IMG/VR virus record: IMGVR_UViG_3300036832_000493
Location: 2,085-66,084 of that record
Direction: 5' to 3' (one strand)
From: a virus
Taxonomy: Duplodnaviria; Caudoviricetes
DNA: 64,000 nt
The position numbers were made by a program, and so were the translations under genes. Positions 57,408-64,000 of this stretch are shown piece by piece (within the stretch, counting starts at the first letter, position 1; each line of letters opens with the position of its first letter). The notes beneath the pieces are model-generated. The model was not told where the DNA came from, did not search any database, and saw nothing but the letters and a program-made list of their open reading frames with translations.

Positions 57408-57836
57408 CTAGATGTAGGCCTTCACCGTGCGCGGATCGCCCGTGATCTTGCCGACGAGGTCGAGGTCGTTGAACAGGACGAGCAGCGCCTCGTCCTTGCC
57501 GTCCTTGGTCTCGACCGACCAGCGGTCGCCGCCATACTTGGGCACGCGGACGAACTCGCCGGGCGCGGCCCACGCGCCCTCGGGCCAGACCTCGCGCGTG
57601 GTGCGGTTGCGAAACGCCAGCGCGCCGATGGCCAGCACCTTGGCCACCTGCGTGTTCCAGTGCTCGGTCTCGCGCGTGTCGGACAGCAGATGCACGCCGC
57701 CTTTGGTCACTTTCATCGGTGTCCTGATCTGCACGAGCACCCGGGAGCCGAGGGGCTCCAGCTGCGGATCACAGGGCGGGAAGGCCGCGTCGAGGTCGGG
57801 GTAGGCGAAGGCGATCTTGTTCGCGAGTTCGTGCAA
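57408..57836 (-). CDS. groES: GroES-like co-chaperonin
   Basis: LEPLGSRVLVQI...TKGGVHL...KVLAIG...GEFVRVPKYGG...FNDLDLVG. Confidence 0.85.
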   Translation of the reverse strand: MHELANKIAFAYPDLDAAFPPCDPQLEPLGSRVLVQIRTPMKVTKGGVHLLSDTRETEHWNTQVAKVLAIGALAFRNRTTREVWPEGAWAAPGEFVRVPKYGGDRWSVETKDGKDEALLVLFNDLDLVGKITGDPRTVKAYI

Positions 57837-57845
57837 GGGGGCCTC

Positions 57846-58037
57846 CTAGTAGCGGCTGCGGCGCTCGTCGTCCTCGCGCTGCATCTCCTCGAACAGCTGC
57901 GCGGCGCGCGCCAGCCCCGCGTAGAAGCCGACGGCGCGGCCATAGCCGAACAGGTCGTTGCTGGGCTTGGCCATCGCCTCGTGCGCGACGGTGGTGCACT
58001 CCAGCTGCAGCCGGACGGAGAACGGATCGGGCTTCAC
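57846..58037 (-). CDS. hypothetical protein
   Basis: 63 aa; YGRAVGFYAGL pattern, usual upstream of phage GroES. Confidence 0.65.
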   Translation of the reverse strand: MKPDPFSVRLQLECTTVAHEAMAKPSNDLFGYGRAVGFYAGLARAAQLFEEMQREDDERRSRY

Positions 58038-58174
58038 TTGGGGACTTTCTTGCCCGTGCCGCAGCCGGTGTCGACCTTGACGTCGGCGGCGAGCTTCTTG
58101 TGCTGGGGCACGGCGGCGTCCTTCATGCTGACGCTGCCGCTCGGCTTGGCCGACTTCGCGTTGTTATCCGCCAT
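58034..58174 (-). CDS. small basic protein (46 aa)
   Basis: AAGGAG RBS; MADNNAKSAKPSG...KKVPK*. Confidence 0.55.
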   Translation of the reverse strand: MADNNAKSAKPSGSVSMKDAAVPQHKKLAADVKVDTGCGTGKKVPK

Positions 58175-58305
58175 CGGGTGTCTCCTTCGGGGGTGGGGGC
58201 TCGACCGGCTTGCCCTCGCTGTCGACGGCCAAGGGCCGCGACGGCGGCGGGCCGAGGATGCGCCTCAGTTCGGGCGGACAGGGGAAGAGCTTGGGCTTCT
58301 CCATG

Positions 58306-58533
58306 TCAGTCCTGCCACGTCAGCGCTTTGACGCACCACATCTGGGCGCTCTGGCACTCGGTGATGGCAACCGAGCAGAGCCGCGCAAGCTCGCCGACGT
58401 GGCTCTCGCGCAGCCGCTGCATCTGGTCGATGATGTCGGCGAAGGCCTGCTTGCACTCGGCGACGCGATCATCGCCGCTCGGGTTGAAGGTCAGGCCGAC
58501 GGCCTTCTGGCCATAGGTCAGGGGCACGTCCAT
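58306..58533 (-). CDS. Acb2/Tad1-like anti-defence nucleotide-sponge protein
   Basis: FNPSGDDRVAECK...RLCSVAITECQSAQMWCVKALT helical-hairpin signature. Confidence 0.7.
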   Translation of the reverse strand: MDVPLTYGQKAVGLTFNPSGDDRVAECKQAFADIIDQMQRLRESHVGELARLCSVAITECQSAQMWCVKALTWQD

Positions 58534-58808
58534 CAGACAAGCTCCCAGTCTTCGCCGAGCACGTCGCTCTGGCTAGCCAGCCACGGCACGACGTCGCCCT
58601 GCGCGGTCTTCATCGCGACGTAGGGGCGGTAGGGCACGAGGCCGTCCTTCTCGTCCTCGGCGATCTCGCGCCCGGCGGTGGTGGTCGGCGCGTAGCGCCC
58701 CTCGGGGACGAGGTAGATGAACATGCCCTTGCCGTTCCAGCCCGAGCGGGTGAGCCGGTGGCCTGCTTTCAGGCCCTTGATCGCCGATCCGAAGTCCATG
58801 CCGGTCAT
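58533..58808 (-). CDS. tad2: DUF2829 / Tad2-family anti-defence sponge protein
   Basis: MDFGSAIKGLKAGHRLTRSGWNGKGMFIYL...VPWLASQSDVLGEDW. Confidence 0.85.
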   Translation of the reverse strand: MTGMDFGSAIKGLKAGHRLTRSGWNGKGMFIYLVPEGRYAPTTTAGREIAEDEKDGLVPYRPYVAMKTAQGDVVPWLASQSDVLGEDWELV

Positions 58809-58811
58809 GCC

Positions 58812-58979
58812 CTAGCTCCTGTTGTGGCGCGTGTAGATGCGGTTGTAGCTGGTGATGCCCGCGACCCGGTCGTCCCGGACCTCCTCGACAATCCGCCGCA
58901 GCGCCACCGGCAGCTGGTCGAGGTTGACGATCAGCTGCTCCATCGTGTCCGGCGGGAGTTCGGGCGGGGGTTTGGTCAT
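58812..58979 (-). CDS. 55-aa YhhA-like (cyclophane RiPP precursor-like) peptide
   Basis: ...PVALRRIVEEVRDDRVAGITSYNRIYTRHNRS*; GGAG RBS, ATGA coupling; not in the ORF track. Confidence 0.65.
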   Translation of the reverse strand: MTKPPPELPPDTMEQLIVNLDQLPVALRRIVEEVRDDRVAGITSYNRIYTRHNRS

Positions 58980-59140
58980 AGGGTCACTCCGAGGTCACCG
59001 AGGTGCCGCAGCACATAGATCACCGCCGCGACGATGACCACGACGGTGATCACGGTCTTCATCGTCTGGTCAATGGGCAGCAGCCGCATCAGATAGAGCG
59101 CCGCACCGACGATGATGAGCATGATGATGAGGCCGATCAT
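58976..59140 (-). CDS. small two-TM membrane protein (54 aa)
   Basis: MIGLIIMLIIVGAALYLMRLLPIDQTMKTVITVVVIVAAVIYVLR; coupled to the portal stop. Confidence 0.7.
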   Translation of the reverse strand: MIGLIIMLIIVGAALYLMRLLPIDQTMKTVITVVVIVAAVIYVLRHLGDLGVTL

Positions 59141-61851
59141 TCAGACGGTCCTTTCCTTGTCGCGGCGGGCTTTCTGGGTGCGGCCTTGCGCCCCGGGTTG
59201 ATGCCGGTGCCGGTCGAGAGCGCGACGCGCTCGCCGCTCTCCATCTCCATCTGGGCGATGCCGACGGCGGTCTGGTTGTCGGCCTCGTTCATCGTCAGCT
59301 TGGCGTCGGTCTCGGTCTGCGTCCGGCGCTCCTCGCTCTGGCGGTTGGCCGCGTCGCTGGCGGCGGCGACGCCGGTAGCCTGCGTCTGCTGCTCGACCTT
59401 GGCCTGATCGGCCTCGGCCTGCTGCTCGGTCTTGGCCTGCTGCTGGGCGGCGGTCTGCGCGTCCTTCTGCGCCTGCGCCTGCTGCTTGAGCGCATCGGCC
59501 TGCGCCGCCTGCTGGAGCTTGGCCTGCTCGGTGCTGGCCTTCATCTGGTCGCTCTGGCCCTGCTGCTGGGCCTTCTGGCCCTCGATCTGGACCATCGCCT
59601 GCGTCGCCTGCGACTGGGCCGCTGCCGGGTCCATCGGCGGCGGCGGGGTCAGCTGCTGGGCCTGCTGCTGGGCCTGCTGGAGCAGCGGGATCAGCGGCCC
59701 GAACAGCTGCTGGGCTTCCTCGCCAACCACGGTCGCGGCCTGCGTCAGCAGGTTGTCGAGCGCCTTGAAGTCCTCGTCGCCCTCGTGCTGCTTGATCGCC
59801 TTGTCGATGTCGAGCCCCGTGTAGTGCTCGGCGAGGTCGGTCGTCGTCGCCATGTACCAGAGCACCATGTGCTCCTTCATGTGCTGGACGAACGGCGGGA
59901 CGAAGGCCTGCGCGAACATCGGGTTCTGCCCGAAGGCGGGGTTCTGGTAGAAGCCGATGTGCGCCTGCATGTGGGCCTTGTGGTTCTGCGCGGGGAAGGC
60001 GACGACGGGGCGCCCCAGCGACATCGCGACGTTCTCGGCAATCGGGTTCTGCGCTTCCGGCTCAGGATCAGGGATCAGTAGCTCATCGACATTGGGCACT
60101 TTCAGCGTGGTCAGGAAGCGCTCCTCGACCTTGCGCAGGTTGTAGACCTGCGGCATCAGCTGCGAGCGCTGGGTGACGGCCTGCGCCTGCGAGTAGCGCT
60201 GGGCCTCGCTGTAGATGTTGGGGTCCGACACCGGCACGACGTCCTGCGGCCCGGTGAAGTCCTTGCGCTTGGCCATGTCCTTGCCGACCTCGCGCTCGAT
60301 GTCGGCATCTTTCAGGTACATGGCGTTGAAGCGGTGCAGTATCTGGAGCAGGCGGCCCATCGCGTTGTGGGTGCGCAGGTGGATGCTGGAGTAGACCGCC
60401 ATGCCCTGCTCCATGCGGGCCAGCGTCGTGCCGACGGGCACGTTGGGGTTGCTGTCGGCGTCGTCCTCCAGTGTCGTCCGCACGACGTTCTTGCCCGCAT
60501 CGACGAGGAAGCCGAGCAGCGAGAACAGCACGGGGCTCGGCTGGTTGTACGGCATCGGCATGAACAGCTTGCGGATGTCGTCGGTCTGCATGCCGCCGTC
60601 GATCTCGACGATCTCGCCGACGTCGGGCGAGCGCGTCTGCCCGCCGATCATCGCGCCCTTGAGCTTCAGCCCGGTCGCGGCGTTCTGGATGTGGGCGCTG
60701 TCGAGCAGGGCCCGCAGCGCGCCGGTCGCAGCCCCGGAGAGCCCACCGATGATGTGCGGCAGACCGATGGGGTAGGCGCCGCGCCACGGCAGGAAGGGGA
60801 ACTCGACGACCCAGTCGAGGACTTCGTGGCTGTCGTCCTGCTCGTCCCAGTTGCGGTAGATCGAGAGCACGTCGTGGGTGCTCTTGTCGGTCGTGACGAT
60901 GTAGGGCATCGGCTCTTCGTCATCGCCGTCGCCGTCCTTGTCGCGGCCCTTGCCGCCGTCCTTGTCCTGCAGGCGCAGGCAGGTGTAGGTCTCGAAGACC
61001 GTGCGCAGGCCGTCTTCATTGTATGCAGTTGCCTCGCGGCCCTCGATCTTGTCGCTGGCCTTGCCCGAGGCCGTGGGCTCGGGCTCGACCGACGTCGGCG
61101 TGATGTCGACGTCGCGGTACATCTTGGTGCGGACGCGCTCCTCGTACTCGTTGGTGGTCAGGTACTGGACGTGGGTCTGGCGCTCGGCGCTGTAGAAGTT
61201 GGTCGCGGCGAACGGGATCAGCATGTCGTCGACGAAGACCGCGAGGCCGGTGGGCCGGTTGCGCTTGCGGTCCCAACCCATCTTCAGGTACTGGCCGCCG
61301 CCCAGCGGCACCTGCGTCAGCATCTGCTCAAGCTCGGCGCGGAACTCCTTGGCCTGCTTAGTCAGCTGCCAGTTCATCAGCTTGGCCTTGCGGTCGGCGC
61401 GCTCGACCTTCTGGGCGGTCTCCTCGCCCTCGATGTGCGTCTTGACCGGTCCGTCGGGCGGCCAGATTTCCTTGATGATCCGCGACGAGAAGTCGATACA
61501 GGCCTCGACGAGCATCGGGTGCACGACCTTCGACGCCCCTTCGAACCTCGCGCCACCCGGTGCCTCGTCGCCGAGCCCCGTGCGCTTGATGCCCTCGGCG
61601 TAGAGTTCATCACGCTTGCTGCGCGCGCTCTTGTCGCGGTCGATGCTCTCGATCAGATCGGTGGCGATCTTCTTGAGTTCCCACGTCGGCATGCCCTCGG
61701 CGAGGTTGGCGTAGAAGTCGCTCTCGCCCGGTAGCTCGTCGTCGCCCAGCTTGACGATGGCTCCGCCGTCCTCGGTGTCCTCGACGTCGGGCTCGACGTC
61801 CTCGTAGTCGACAAGCTCGCTTTCGTCGGGAGTGGTGTCGGGCACGGTCAC
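59137..61851 (-). CDS. portal protein (P22-like, long Gln/Ala-rich C-terminus)
   Basis: 904 aa downstream of TerL; GASKVVHPML, FLPWRGAYPIGLPH, PVGTTLARME. Confidence 0.9.
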   Translation of the reverse strand: MTVPDTTPDESELVDYEDVEPDVEDTEDGGAIVKLGDDELPGESDFYANLAEGMPTWELKKIATDLIESIDRDKSARSKRDELYAEGIKRTGLGDEAPGGARFEGASKVVHPMLVEACIDFSSRIIKEIWPPDGPVKTHIEGEETAQKVERADRKAKLMNWQLTKQAKEFRAELEQMLTQVPLGGGQYLKMGWDRKRNRPTGLAVFVDDMLIPFAATNFYSAERQTHVQYLTTNEYEERVRTKMYRDVDITPTSVEPEPTASGKASDKIEGREATAYNEDGLRTVFETYTCLRLQDKDGGKGRDKDGDGDDEEPMPYIVTTDKSTHDVLSIYRNWDEQDDSHEVLDWVVEFPFLPWRGAYPIGLPHIIGGLSGAATGALRALLDSAHIQNAATGLKLKGAMIGGQTRSPDVGEIVEIDGGMQTDDIRKLFMPMPYNQPSPVLFSLLGFLVDAGKNVVRTTLEDDADSNPNVPVGTTLARMEQGMAVYSSIHLRTHNAMGRLLQILHRFNAMYLKDADIEREVGKDMAKRKDFTGPQDVVPVSDPNIYSEAQRYSQAQAVTQRSQLMPQVYNLRKVEERFLTTLKVPNVDELLIPDPEPEAQNPIAENVAMSLGRPVVAFPAQNHKAHMQAHIGFYQNPAFGQNPMFAQAFVPPFVQHMKEHMVLWYMATTTDLAEHYTGLDIDKAIKQHEGDEDFKALDNLLTQAATVVGEEAQQLFGPLIPLLQQAQQQAQQLTPPPPMDPAAAQSQATQAMVQIEGQKAQQQGQSDQMKASTEQAKLQQAAQADALKQQAQAQKDAQTAAQQQAKTEQQAEADQAKVEQQTQATGVAAASDAANRQSEERRTQTETDAKLTMNEADNQTAVGIAQMEMESGERVALSTGTGINPGRKAAPRKPAATRKGPSE

Positions 61852-61877: not shown

Positions 61878-62099
61878 TCACCTAGTCCACAGTTCAGGGG
61901 GGTCGAGATAAATGCGCCGATGATCGAACATCACGTAGAACCGGCGGGGTTCGCGCATGGTGGCGTGAACGGGCGTGCCGACCGGGATCGGGTCACCCGT
62001 CTTCCAGTCCTCGGGCAAGCGGCGTGAACGCCCTGCCTCGTCCGCCTCGGCGCAGCCGAGGCACCAGTCGAACATGGGGTCGTTTCGGTTAGGCAGCAT
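61878..62099 (-). CDS. small hypothetical gene inserted between TerL and portal
   Basis: 73 aa; flanked by a duplicated TerL C-terminal NPYAA* sequence. Confidence 0.55.
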   Translation of the reverse strand: MLPNRNDPMFDWCLGCAEADEAGRSRRLPEDWKTGDPIPVGTPVHATMREPRRFYVMFDHRRIYLDPPELWTR

Positions 62100-63576
62100 A
62101 GGGGTTCACCACCTTCTGGCGCGGCAGCGGCTCCTCGTCCTCGGGCTTGGGCTTGCGAGGCTTTACCACCGAGACGAAACCCTTGTCGAGCAGCACGCGC
62201 AGGCACTGCGTCGTGCTGTCGACGTAGTCGTCGTGCTTGAGGCTGCCCTCGCCCGCATAGGACGTCAGCTGCTGGATCAGCGGCTCGGCCCACGACTTCG
62301 GCTTGCCCGGCAGCTTCTCGCTCTCGGGTATCCAGATCGCGCGGCGCGCGAACATCGGGCTGACGAGGTGCAGGCGCGACAGCTTGTCCATGCGCCCCGG
62401 GTTGTAGGCGTGCGCCTCGATCTTGTGCCGCACGAGGCTCTGCCGCAGGCTGATGCCGCTGCCCTTGTCCTCGATGATCAGCAGATCGGGCTTGCGCCCG
62501 CTGGTGATCGGCTTGGCGCTGCCGACGATGGGCCGGATGATCGCCGTGTCCTCGTCCTCGCCGTAGCGCGTGTTCATCTCGCGCTTGACGCGCAGGATCA
62601 GGTCCGGGAGCCCGAGGCGCTCCTCCCAGCAGTCGAGCAGCAGCAGGTGATGCTCGACCTCGTCCTTGTCGGCCATGCGCCGGATCGCCTTGAACGAGGC
62701 CCAGACCGTGCAGGCCGTGTAGTCGGGGTCGTGGGTCTTGCTGTCCATCGTCGCCTCGGTGAAGGCCGTGTCGAGGCTCATGATGATCATGTCGAACTGG
62801 GGCAGCCGCTTGGCGGCGGGCCACAGCCTGATCCAGCTGCGGCGGATGACGCCCTGCTCCTCGGGATCGATCAGTTCGCCGAGCAGTTCCTGCCGCCCGA
62901 TGGTCGTGCCCTCGTACTGGACGACCTTGTCGTAGAAGGTCTTCGAGAGGTTGGCGCGATTGTCATAGGTTGTGCCCTTGACGATCAGGCGACCGGGCTC
63001 CGGTGTGGTCAGCCGCCGGATGATGTCGCGCGGCTTGGGCGTCGTCGTCCACAGCACCTGCGTCATGGTGCCGAGGCGCAGGCCCATCTGCATCATGTCC
63101 CATGCTTCCTCGGCGTACTGCCATGCGGCAAGCTCGTCGCCCCAGCAGCGCGTGCACTCGGGGCCGCGCAGGCGCTCGGGCTGGTCGGCGCTGAAGCCCC
63201 GGATCAGCGTGCTGCCCCCGGCGATGTTGCGCATTGTTATAGTGTGGTCGGTGGTGTTGGTGTCGAGGATCAGGTCGGGCGGGATGACGCTCAGGAGCCC
63301 GCTGCGGCCCCGGAAGCAGGTGAACTTGATGTCGTTGAGGGTCGGCGCGATGACGTGCGCCGCGAGCCCCGACGGGTCTTCAAAGGTCGCCCGGCCCAGC
63401 CACTCGGCCCCGGTGCGCGTCTTGCCGAAGCCGCGCCCGGCCATGACCCCGCACTCGCTCCAGTCGTCCTCGGGCGGTATCTGCGCGGGCCGCGCCGTGT
63501 TGATCCAGCGTTCCTGCCAGTTGACGTAGGCCTGCAGCTGCGGCGTCAGGCGCGCCACGGTCGCCGCGAAGTCCAT
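62089..63576 (-). CDS. terL: terminase large subunit
   Basis: AGRGFGKT Walker A, LRGP...WGDE Walker B, TTTP, SLDTA nuclease, IEDKGSG, HDDYVDS. Confidence 0.95.
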   Translation of the reverse strand: MDFAATVARLTPQLQAYVNWQERWINTARPAQIPPEDDWSECGVMAGRGFGKTRTGAEWLGRATFEDPSGLAAHVIAPTLNDIKFTCFRGRSGLLSVIPPDLILDTNTTDHTITMRNIAGGSTLIRGFSADQPERLRGPECTRCWGDELAAWQYAEEAWDMMQMGLRLGTMTQVLWTTTPKPRDIIRRLTTPEPGRLIVKGTTYDNRANLSKTFYDKVVQYEGTTIGRQELLGELIDPEEQGVIRRSWIRLWPAAKRLPQFDMIIMSLDTAFTEATMDSKTHDPDYTACTVWASFKAIRRMADKDEVEHHLLLLDCWEERLGLPDLILRVKREMNTRYGEDEDTAIIRPIVGSAKPITSGRKPDLLIIEDKGSGISLRQSLVRHKIEAHAYNPGRMDKLSRLHLVSPMFARRAIWIPESEKLPGKPKSWAEPLIQQLTSYAGEGSLKHDDYVDSTTQCLRVLLDKGFVSVVKPRKPKPEDEEPLPRQKVVNPYAA

Positions 63577-64000
63577 CAGACGAGGTCGCTGCCGTCGGGC
63601 TCCTGCGCTTCGAGCAGGATCGGCTCCTCGCCTCTGCCCTTGGCCCGCAGCGCGATGGCAAGGCGCACAGCCAGATCGGCGGTGCCCTCGATCTCCAGCG
63701 GCTGGCCCGGGATGCCGCCGACTTCGAGCTTGGGATTGAAGCGCGAGTTGTAGAACGGCGCATAGCGCATGCGCATCTCGGCGCGGTTCTTGGCCCATGC
63801 CACCGAGGCCATGTCGTACTTGCTGCCGGGCACTGTGTAGTTGCCCTCGCTGTCGCGCACGAGCACGCGCTGCGGCTCGGCGTCAACGATGTCGACGGCC
63901 TGCTGCACGATCACCTCCGAAGCGATGAACTGCGCTTGAATGTACGCGGCGTCCATTGCTTTGTCGGCCCTCCGCCACTGCCCGAAGACCTCGGGCGACG
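63576..64000 (-). CDS. terS: terminase small subunit (5' end outside window)
   Basis: Frame open to the window edge and coupled to the TerL start; IVDAEP...VAWAKNRAEMRMR (Sf6 gp1-like pattern). Confidence 0.75.
   Translation of the reverse strand, partial: SPEVFGQWRRADKAMDAAYIQAQFIASEVIVQQAVDIVDAEPQRVLVRDSEGNYTVPGSKYDMASVAWAKNRAEMRMRYAPFYNSRFNPKLEVGGIPGQPLEIEGTADLAVRLAIALRAKGRGEEPILLEAQEPDGSDLV

Follow-up and report, generated by a model that had tools for sequence, protein, structure and literature searches.

To our knowledge, triceptides are a chemistry to which no biological role has been assigned. The closest described system is YhhABC, in which the maturase YhhB reportedly joins the beta-carbon of an Arg to Tyr-C3 or His-C2 (PMC11002830). 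The target Arg lies two residues on from the Tyr or His, the 'HNR' ring included, and passages of two papers give YxR and HNR as the motif types cross-linked by YhhB and credit the YhhABC chemistry to Sugiyama et al., JACS 2022 (PMC11002830; PMC11499958). YhhB/C-modified YhhA is also mentioned in part of a further paper, which gives YhhC as an Asp beta-hydroxylase (PMC12186529).

The second system of relevance is retron Eco7 (Ec78), in which, as the pertinent sections of two reports describe it, RT-msDNA serves as an antitoxin that binds and neutralizes PtuAB until a phage nuclease destroys it (PMC12640716; PMC12819146). The phage answers to Septu and to the retron that are named in parts of the reports concerned are tRNAs and Rad (PMC11555353; 10.1101/2023.03.15.532788). 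The candidate considered here is, by contrast, a peptide. Phages also use antitoxin mimics, among them the pseudo-ToxI RNA of phage PhiTE, directed against ToxIN, and T4 Dmd. The candidate would resemble these mimics as a phage-borne copy or analogue of a host component that silences a suicide effector; however, they act directly, whereas the peptide would need host enzymes, which would be a new dependency.

In the literature searched, no paper was found that links YhhABC or triceptides to Septu, phage defence or phage genomes; the founding paper and all supplements lay outside the scope of this search and may describe the gene neighbourhood. As far as searched, both the linkage of bacterial yhhA cassettes to Septu and the recurrence of orphan precursor genes in phages, which are described below, are new.

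A YhhA-Family Precursor Gene in a Phage Genome

The window, that is, the whole 64,000-nt stretch of DNA that was analysed, comprises bases 2085–66084 of a 66,084-base IMG/VR phage record with a CheckV completeness of 100%. The first-pass annotation, made from the sequence alone, had singled out a 55-aa ORF with YNR, YTR and HNR triplets, and this ORF is found exactly at 58812–58979 on the minus strand (Table 1), the C-terminal end of its product being ...ALRRIVEEVRDDRVAGITSYNRIYTRHNRS. The annotation had suggested a likeness to YhhA-family precursors and had named a profile search as one of its checks. The NCBIfam model NF041705 (YhhA family cyclophane-containing RiPP), which has 33 positions and a curated cut-off of 36 bits, bears this likeness out: residues 25–54 of the peptide align to model positions 4–33 with an E-value of 6.9e-11 and 42.1 bits (41.9 bits in the search of the phage's own record). 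This match is far beyond chance for one window. NCBIfam alone has a model for the peptide, as no family was returned for it by Pfam, PHROGs or PADLOC.

Family membership is further reflected in the two parts of the peptide. The leader block [SP]-x-A-[LI]-x-R-[LI]-[IV]-x-E-[VI], located 12–20 residues before the core, is represented by PVALRRIVEEVR, and the Tyr-x-Arg / aromatic-x-Arg / His-Asn-Arg core at the peptide end by YNR-I-YTR-HNR-S. According to the alignments and the motif table, the leader block PVALRRIVEEVR is conserved in all bacterial and phage relatives, and it is presumably the recognition element of the maturase. The core columns of the window peptide are invariant in 17 relatives and in 20 orphan peptides and also in the bacterial copies, and the triplet types in the window core are exactly those for which cross-linking by YhhB is described in the passages cited above. 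What is absent is the neighbouring YhhB radical SAM/SPASM maturase with YhhC and the HExxH hydroxylase. The peptide is therefore a YhhA-family member by sequence for which the family's defining neighbourhood is missing by context. In comparison with the described YhhABC system (NF041705, NF041707 and NF041706), the locus shares the precursor family, the leader block and the Tyr-x-Arg and His-Asn-Arg triplets; it differs in that the window phage has no YhhB, YhhC or HExxH hydroxylase, in the location of the gene, which is part of a phage packaging operon and adjoins anti-defence genes, and in a trailing Ser that is confined to orphan copies.

Relatives were collected by a full HMMER scan of 1.84 billion representatives, used instead of a word-indexed protein search that gave 2 matches only. 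Eighteen matches were obtained at E <= 0.001, and 16 of them are peptides of 43–132 aa with the leader and the C-terminal core placed as in the window peptide. P0003 and P0014 are long, repetitive, coiled-coil-like proteins and were dropped as compositional false positives.

Long spurious frames are abundant in high-GC DNA, and the ORF could accordingly be a chance open frame without a gene. This reading is effectively refuted by the profile match (E 6.9e-11, above the curated cut-off), by the GC3 of 0.95 and by homologues that are conserved across dozens of loci. At the three codon positions the GC content is 0.65/0.40/0.95, a pattern shared by the adjoining phage genes, with a GC3 of 0.87–0.97 in those flanking the yhhA-like gene. 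Furthermore, the start codon overlaps the stop codon of the upstream 54-aa gene in an ATGA. The homologue P0001, which is 98% identical to the window peptide, has been called from the second Met; the 55-aa form is favoured here because of the ribosome site and the ATGA coupling. Judged from its sequence, ORF 58812–58979 is a real gene for a predicted YhhA-family triceptide precursor.

Table 1. Position of the yhhA-like gene, its sequence elements and the surrounding genes in the window.
Feature	Position	Strand	Basis
yhhA-like gene, 55-aa predicted triceptide precursor	58812..58979	-	ORF list; NF041705; GC3 0.95; homologue P0001 98% identical
Stop codon of yhhA-like gene	58812-58814	-	
ATG of yhhA-like gene	58977-58979	-	
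Leader motif PVALRRIVEEVR, residues 24-35	58875..58910	-	Alignments and motif table
Core YNR-I-YTR-HNR-S, residues 45-55 (three aromatic-x-Arg triplets and trailing Ser)	58815..58847	-	
GGAG Shine-Dalgarno-like element, 7 nt upstream of ATG	58987..58990	-	Read from sequence
Portal protein, upstream border of slot	59137..61851	-	52% identity over 894 aa to RW gp094c region
54-aa small membrane protein, Thivi_2564 family	58976..59140	-	NF041949
Tad2-like gene, 91 aa	58533..58808	-	PF11195, E 1e-26, 93.6 bits (cut-off 25)
Acb2/Tad1 hairpin-domain gene, 75 aa	58306..58533	-	PF24729, E 1.2e-6, 29.1 bits (cut-off 27)
46-aa ORF, last gene of window-specific insert	58164..58304	-	GC3 0.87
Downstream slot border (two small ORFs and GroES-like gene, all common to RW)	57408..58174	-	tblastn
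Small conserved ORFs at downstream slot border	58034-58174, 57846-58037	-	tblastn to RW
GroES-like gene	57408-57836	-	Cpn10 PF00166, E 1.2e-4

A Variable Slot Between the Portal and GroES-Like Genes

The phage is related to cultured Caulobacter phages. Its capsid protein is 82% identical to the capsids of phages RW, GB2A, RLK and KcrB, and synteny with RW covers TerL, portal, two small ORFs, the GroES-like gene, scaffold and capsid. Between the portal and GroES-like genes lies a variable slot (58164–59140) with a five-gene insert consisting of the membrane peptide, yhhA, the Tad2-like gene, the Acb2/Tad1-like gene and the 46-aa ORF. RW is without this insert and has an unrelated 146-aa gene in its place. 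The portal protein itself shares a BLAST cluster with a protein of L012, another locus of the data set.

Within the insert, the 54-aa membrane protein is assigned by NF041949 (E 6.1e-12, 45.4 bits against a cut-off of 33) and phrog_23151 (E 1.3e-5), and its gene overlaps both the portal stop and the yhhA start in ATGA sequences. The placement of yhhA directly upstream of tad2, stated in the first-pass annotation, holds, with the Tad2-like gene (58533–58808) beginning 3 nt past the yhhA stop; its AGGAG ribosome site is made up of the last two sense codons of yhhA, which encode Arg and the trailing Ser. The 46-aa ORF at the end of the insert has no Pfam family and no tblastn match in Caulobacter phage RW. 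The yhhA-like gene thus shows the operational marks of a counter-defence gene, namely a location in a variable slot, a position beside known anti-defence families and absence from the close relative RW. It has the accessory slot and the operon in common with the Tad2 (PF11195) and Acb2/Tad1 (PF24729) families, and co-occurs with Tad2-like genes in three loci; these families, however, consist of folded proteins whose names refer to the binding of nucleotide signals and bear no sequence relation to the yhhA product, which would be a short enzyme substrate.

The whole 66,084-base record gave 0 matches to Radical_SAM (PF04055) and SPASM (PF13186), so that the absence of a radical SAM gene, which had been noted for the window, extends to the entire phage genome. 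In the window, no match to YhhB, YhhC or the HExxH hydroxylase was found by tblastn, and the record holds no tyrosine integrase. Among 50,697 GenBank phage records, no homologue of the peptide was found at E <= 1 bar one match, a 34% match in two records of one Mycobacterium phage, which was rejected as spurious. The Caulobacter vibrioides control genome, which represents the host of RW, contained no match to YhhB.

A scan of the yhhA strand from TerL to the GroES-like gene, which was weak in that it covered E. coli-type sites only, detected no promoter- or terminator-like sites. Due to this and to the coupling with the portal gene, the arrangement suggests that the yhhA-like gene is expressed late. 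Late expression is unusual for a counter-defence gene that needs to act early and weakens a simple early counter-defence model.

Bacterial YhhABC Cassettes and Their Neighbours

The bacterial counterparts were surveyed with a seven-sequence alignment query and one genome per species, yielding 25 loci from Arenicellales, Sphingomonadaceae, Caulobacteraceae, Acetobacteraceae, Acidobacteriota and Streptomyces. Using the proteins of locus L032 in tblastn, YhhB was found beside the precursor in 25/25 loci, and YhhC and the HExxH hydroxylase accompany it in 24, the missing case being a contig end. The enzymes are identified by NF041707 (490 bits for YhhB), NF041706 (YhhC) and TIGR04267 (hydroxylase). 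In addition, a PtuA-PtuB (Septu) pair is adjacent in 20 of the 25 loci (tblastn with the L032 proteins), a count that includes L024 from the unpublished genome G013.

The Septu assignment is supported by full-length PADLOC matches of the L032 proteins (PtuA, PDLC00304, 9.7e-137; PtuB, PDLC00339, 6e-81). The Walker A motif G-x-N-G-x-G-K-T and the D-E pair (Walker B) are invariant in 22 PtuA sequences, and so are the HNH His/Asn columns in 21 PtuB sequences. Since the cassette proteins stay below the cut-offs of the NCBIfam models for retron-type PtuA and PtuB, these PtuAB pairs are not of the retron subtype. The bacterial cassettes are thus similar to retron Eco7 (Ec78)/Septu in carrying a full-length PtuA-PtuB pair, but the accessory module would here be a stapled peptide with three enzymes rather than RT-msDNA. 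Gene order is variable: six genes form one same-strand operon in L022, and in other loci the PtuAB pair is convergent or divergent, still adjacent to the cassette.

Five loci are without PtuAB. One of them is cut off by the contig start, which falls at the peptide. A SIR2_2 protein stands beside the cassette in L030, and in L035 (unpublished genome G014) the low-GC3 island of the cassette also includes a DUF4062+TPR protein. In the two remaining loci, both from Streptomyces, no nameable defence-like neighbour was seen. A sample of 301 genomes from the family of the L022 genome contains YhhB above the cut-off in six genomes, and only two of these six also have the PtuA type of the cassette. These two, one of which is the unpublished G013, are the only genomes of the sample with this PtuA type, and in both it lies ~1.3 kb or less from YhhB. 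The effector link is therefore not universal, as is evident from the two of six YhhB genomes with the PtuA type and from the two Streptomyces loci without a defence-like neighbour.

No conserved exporter or protease was found among the 25 bacterial cassettes, given that no other real gene cluster is common to more than three loci. A cluster present in seven loci (cl6) was rejected as a conserved cassette gene: it overlaps YhhC and the HExxH gene, has no family match and is an antisense longest-ORF artefact in GC-rich DNA. The lack of an exporter or protease and the usual link to Septu PtuA-PtuB lead us to read the bacterial cassette as a candidate defence system, a reading drawn from gene neighbourhood.

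Recurrent Orphan Copies in Phages and Metagenomes

The survey of phage homologues for radical SAM genes that the first-pass annotation had proposed was carried out in IMG/VR. An alignment query was used, as a single-peptide query confirmed nothing in viral contigs, and 11 further records with the precursor were found, in all of which it is an orphan (11/11). None of the 11 contains a Radical_SAM match, although four are 96–100% complete and two have terminal repeats, and none of the fetched loci contains YhhB, YhhC, the HExxH hydroxylase, PtuA or PtuB by tblastn. The tblastn contrast for YhhB is thus 25/25 bacterial loci versus 0/11 viral loci and 0 in the window. A metagenome scan yielded 34 loci: YhhB adjoins the precursor in 22 (nine of which also have PtuA and/or PtuB), YhhC alone is present on one short contig, and 11 are orphans, two of them on contigs that had also given IMG/VR loci.

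The orphan contigs carry genes for TerL, TerS, portal or adaptor, RecT, DNA polymerase and ParB-like proteins, and the phage-type loci span a GC content of 0.49–0.70 and differ in genome position. All 20 orphan peptides match NF041705 at E <= 0.001, and Y45, R47, R51, H52, N53 and R54 are invariant in 20/20. As phage and bacterial copies show equal conservation at the leader and ring-forming positions (motif table and alignment), the phage copies look maturation-competent. A systematic difference concerns the residue after RHNR, where a trailing Ser is present in 7/18 phage-type and 3/3 unclassified orphan peptides and in 0/52 YhhB-linked peptides (Fisher p 2.7e-5, without correction for shared descent). 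The other 11 phage-type peptides are without the Ser and have the same design as the bacterial ones.

The location of the orphan gene is recurrent as well. In 12/18 phage-type loci it lies within ~2 kb of terminase or portal genes, often with translational coupling to them. It directly follows the portal gene in the window (via the membrane peptide), L009 and L052, directly follows TerL in L010 and directly precedes TerS in L011. Tad2-like genes occur near the orphan in three loci, namely the window, L007, where the Tad2-like gene is ~2.6 kb away and accompanied by an Acb2-like gene, and L045, where it is adjacent.

This proximity to packaging genes would also be expected if the phage borrowed host maturases for a stapled peptide of its own that is unrelated to the adjacent effectors and is used to take over the host, to keep competing phages out or as a component with a link to DNA packaging. 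Besides the 12/18 phage-type orphans within ~2 kb of terminase or portal genes and their frequent coupling, such a use would be in keeping with an Arg-rich core that could bind nucleic acid. Moreover, as the window phage has no tyrosine integrase, the yhhA-like gene is not a lysogenic-conversion gene. This explanation nevertheless leaves two patterns unaccounted for, the exporter-less bacterial cassettes tied to nuclease/NADase-type effectors and the travel with Tad2-like genes in three loci, and the gene is dispensable in the closest cultured relatives. We consider it quite improbable.

A Host-Dependent Peptide as a Candidate Counter-Defence Factor

We tentatively favour, at a level of confidence a little short of even, a different explanation: host enzymes would mature the phage peptide, which would mimic or compete with the cassette's own peptide and thereby keep the effector silent. 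The bacterial cassette would produce an intracellular stapled peptide that controls the effector, in the way that RT-msDNA neutralizes PtuAB in retron Eco7, which is taken as the model. On infection, the phage gene, expressed from the packaging operon, would feed extra precursor into the host's own enzymes; the leader PVALRRIVEEVR would be recognized by the host maturase and the YNR-I-YTR-HNR triplets would be stapled into rings by a YhhB-type radical SAM enzyme. Because the phage itself has no maturase, this modification would take place only in a host with yhhB, yhhC and HExxH-hydroxylase genes. The controlling peptide would then stay abundant or be out-competed, and the effector would remain silent.

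This proposal starts from what is observed, that is, the family membership of the peptide, its orphan status, the recurrence of orphans in phages, the linkage of cassettes to Septu and the anti-defence neighbours. To these we add, by inference, a defence role of the cassette, regulation of the effector by its peptide, maturation of the phage copy by the host and the stated direction of the effect. The first-pass annotation had guessed at a decoy or antitoxin mimic, or else at a substrate of a host maturase. This guess has gained comparative support from the Septu pairs in 20/25 bacterial loci and the orphans in 11/11 viral records, and remains an interpretation in which mimic and decoy are not told apart. 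Other defence systems are known to be set off by terminase and portal proteins, and it is conceivable, as pure speculation, that the yhhA-like gene is co-expressed with a defence trigger. In a complex prediction of the L022 PtuA and PtuB with the window peptide in its unmodified form, which may not be the ligand, the score was 0.00, with no controls, which speaks neither for nor against binding.

The direction of the effect may also be the reverse. Here, the stapled peptide of the cassette would activate the effector on infection, and the phage precursor would compete for YhhB/YhhC or block the receptor, thus acting as a decoy or antagonist. Effectors appear swappable (PtuAB, SIR2-like and DUF4062-TPR proteins), as they are in signalling-type defence systems, and the TPR domain of one partner is a typical peptide receptor. 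The Tad2-like and Acb2/Tad1-like neighbours belong to families that, by their Pfam names, sequester immune signals, and the trailing Ser, found in orphans only, is a systematic difference of the kind that an antagonist might need. However, 11/18 phage-type peptides have no trailing Ser and follow the bacterial design, and in the window the ribosome site of tad2 is composed of the Ser codon and the Arg codon before it, which could account for the Ser there. Moreover, the ring-forming residues are invariant throughout, although a pure enzyme blocker could do without some of them. We regard a decoy or antagonist as unlikely.

Taken more broadly, intracellular stapled YhhA peptides, matured by YhhB, YhhC and an HExxH hydroxylase, may control modular abortive-infection systems with Septu PtuAB, a SIR2-like protein or a TIR-like-TPR protein as effector, and phages may counter these with a bare precursor that hijacks host maturases and is co-expressed with packaging proteins; we put this general form forward as possible and with appreciable doubt. 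If true, the linkage of cassettes to effectors and the substrate-only phages would give triceptides an immune role that is directly testable, and would define a new functional class of RiPPs concerned with immune regulation rather than with a secreted antibiotic. It would likewise establish a new class of anti-defence, in which a 55-aa gene acts by substrate mimicry and depends on host enzymes. Cassette-bearing hosts could then be predicted from phages with an orphan YhhA gene, a cheap genomic marker, and the cassette and phage peptide would make a compact, clonable pair for the study of Septu-type nuclease switching.

Peptide Lineages and Variation in Soil Metagenomes

The relationships among the peptides bear on how the gene reached the phages. 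In a nearest-neighbour analysis, 10/17 unique phage peptides are closest to another phage peptide, as opposed to 4.6 expected (p 0.012), and 7/17 are closest to a bacterial peptide; exchange with bacteria therefore occurs. The pattern fits repeated exchange between bacteria and phages together with some phage-resident lineages, as far as peptide sequences can tell. The Caulobacteraceae and Acetobacteraceae cassettes found have the core YNRTFNRHNR or YNRTHNRHNR and the leader DSPAIRRLIEEVR. The window peptide thus does not exactly reproduce any cassette peptide known from the likely host family, which counts against the favoured reading.

The stretch is present in four DNA runs from soil metagenomes, and no RNA run is among them. 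In a third soil run, one variant contig shows five synonymous changes within the ORF, together with I48F, P6S and a change of ATG to GTG. I48F falls at a variable position, and the same change is present in P0001.

A small gene without a partner enzyme might also be a captured host fragment, that is, a piece of a cassette gained by recombination which has no present function and has still not been lost. The seven of 17 unique phage peptides that are nearest to a bacterial peptide are consistent with such a capture. A functionless remnant would, however, hardly be found intact in at least 18 phage-type loci with a GC content of 0.49–0.70 and differing genome positions, with all functional positions invariant. 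The GC3 of the gene is fully phage-adapted, a ribosome site and translational coupling are present, the changes in the variant contig are mostly synonymous, and the phage peptides cluster together (10/17 versus 4.6 expected, p 0.012). These features make a captured fragment very improbable.

A second variant contig from that third soil run, at a low depth of 3.6, shows R47C and A40T in addition to two synonymous changes. R47C would turn the Arg of the first triplet into Cys and counts against the reading of the peptide as a host-matured mimic or competitor.

Trailing serine and core architecture

Among the peptides compared, a serine past the final RHNR is confined to orphan precursors, i.e., those without a YhhB maturase nearby, where it occurs in 7 of 18 phage-type and all three unclassified peptides, as against none of the 52 YhhB-linked ones. 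In the window yhhA, which encodes a YhhA-family triceptide precursor, the codons of Arg54 and Ser55 (AGG AGC) also supply the AGGAG that serves the tad2-like gene as its ribosome site.

The first YNR triplet of the same peptide is altered in a variant contig (record 23) from X3, a third soil-metagenome run, where a G>A change at window position 58841, taken alone, would convert Arg47 to Cys. The contig has a low depth (3.6); the change is a natural variant with a defective ring, or else an error.

One phage precursor (L004) carries two tandem cores behind a single leader, YNRTHNRHNR and YNRSHNRHNR, separated by 10 residues. In four bacterial cassettes (L016, L042, L048, and L049), two precursor genes flank yhhB, one on each side, and their cores differ: YNRTHNRHNR is paired with YNRTYHRHNR in L016, L048, and L049, while in L042 the former is replaced by YNRTYNRHNR.

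Genomic neighborhoods

The window yhhA is coupled to a gene for a 54-aa membrane protein, no homologue of which was seen next to the remaining orphan peptides. Two bacterial cassettes which do not contain the Septu pair PtuAB adjoin genes for a SIR2_2-domain protein (L030) and a DUF4062+TPR protein (L035), the latter sharing one low-GC3 island with its cassette. The presence of these proteins beside PtuAB-less cassettes suggests that the cassette effectors are swappable. In the Streptomyces loci L020 and L023, GC3 is 0.63–0.69 in the yhhABC genes vs. 0.8–0.9 in the flanking genes, and a DDE transposase fragment adjoins the L020 cassette; here, yhhABC looks like an island of recent acquisition without the PtuAB pair.

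Coordinates of features discussed in this section
Feature	Location	Strand	Remarks
Trailing-Ser peptides	window 58815-58820 (Arg54-Ser55 codons); L005, L006, L008, L039, L045, L056; also L040, L044, L058
Two-core precursor	L004:7959-8183
54-aa membrane protein	window 58976-59140		NCBIfam "Thivi_2564 family membrane protein", E 6e-12; phrog_23151
SIR2_2-domain protein	L030:474-2477	-
DUF4062+TPR protein	L035:5901-7556	-	unpublished genome G014
GroES-like (Cpn10) gene	window 57408-57836		within head-assembly module, between variable slot (portal to GroES-like gene) and scaffold gene
Large terminase	window 62089-63798		single 569-aa TerL
Large terminase pieces	L038:827-3629		Caulobacter phage RW

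Comparison with Caulobacter phage RW

The window GroES-like gene is conserved in phage RW, its counterpart showing 61% identity. The large terminase of RW is annotated as two CDS with a SAM-dependent methyltransferase gene between them, and both pieces match the undivided TerL of the window.
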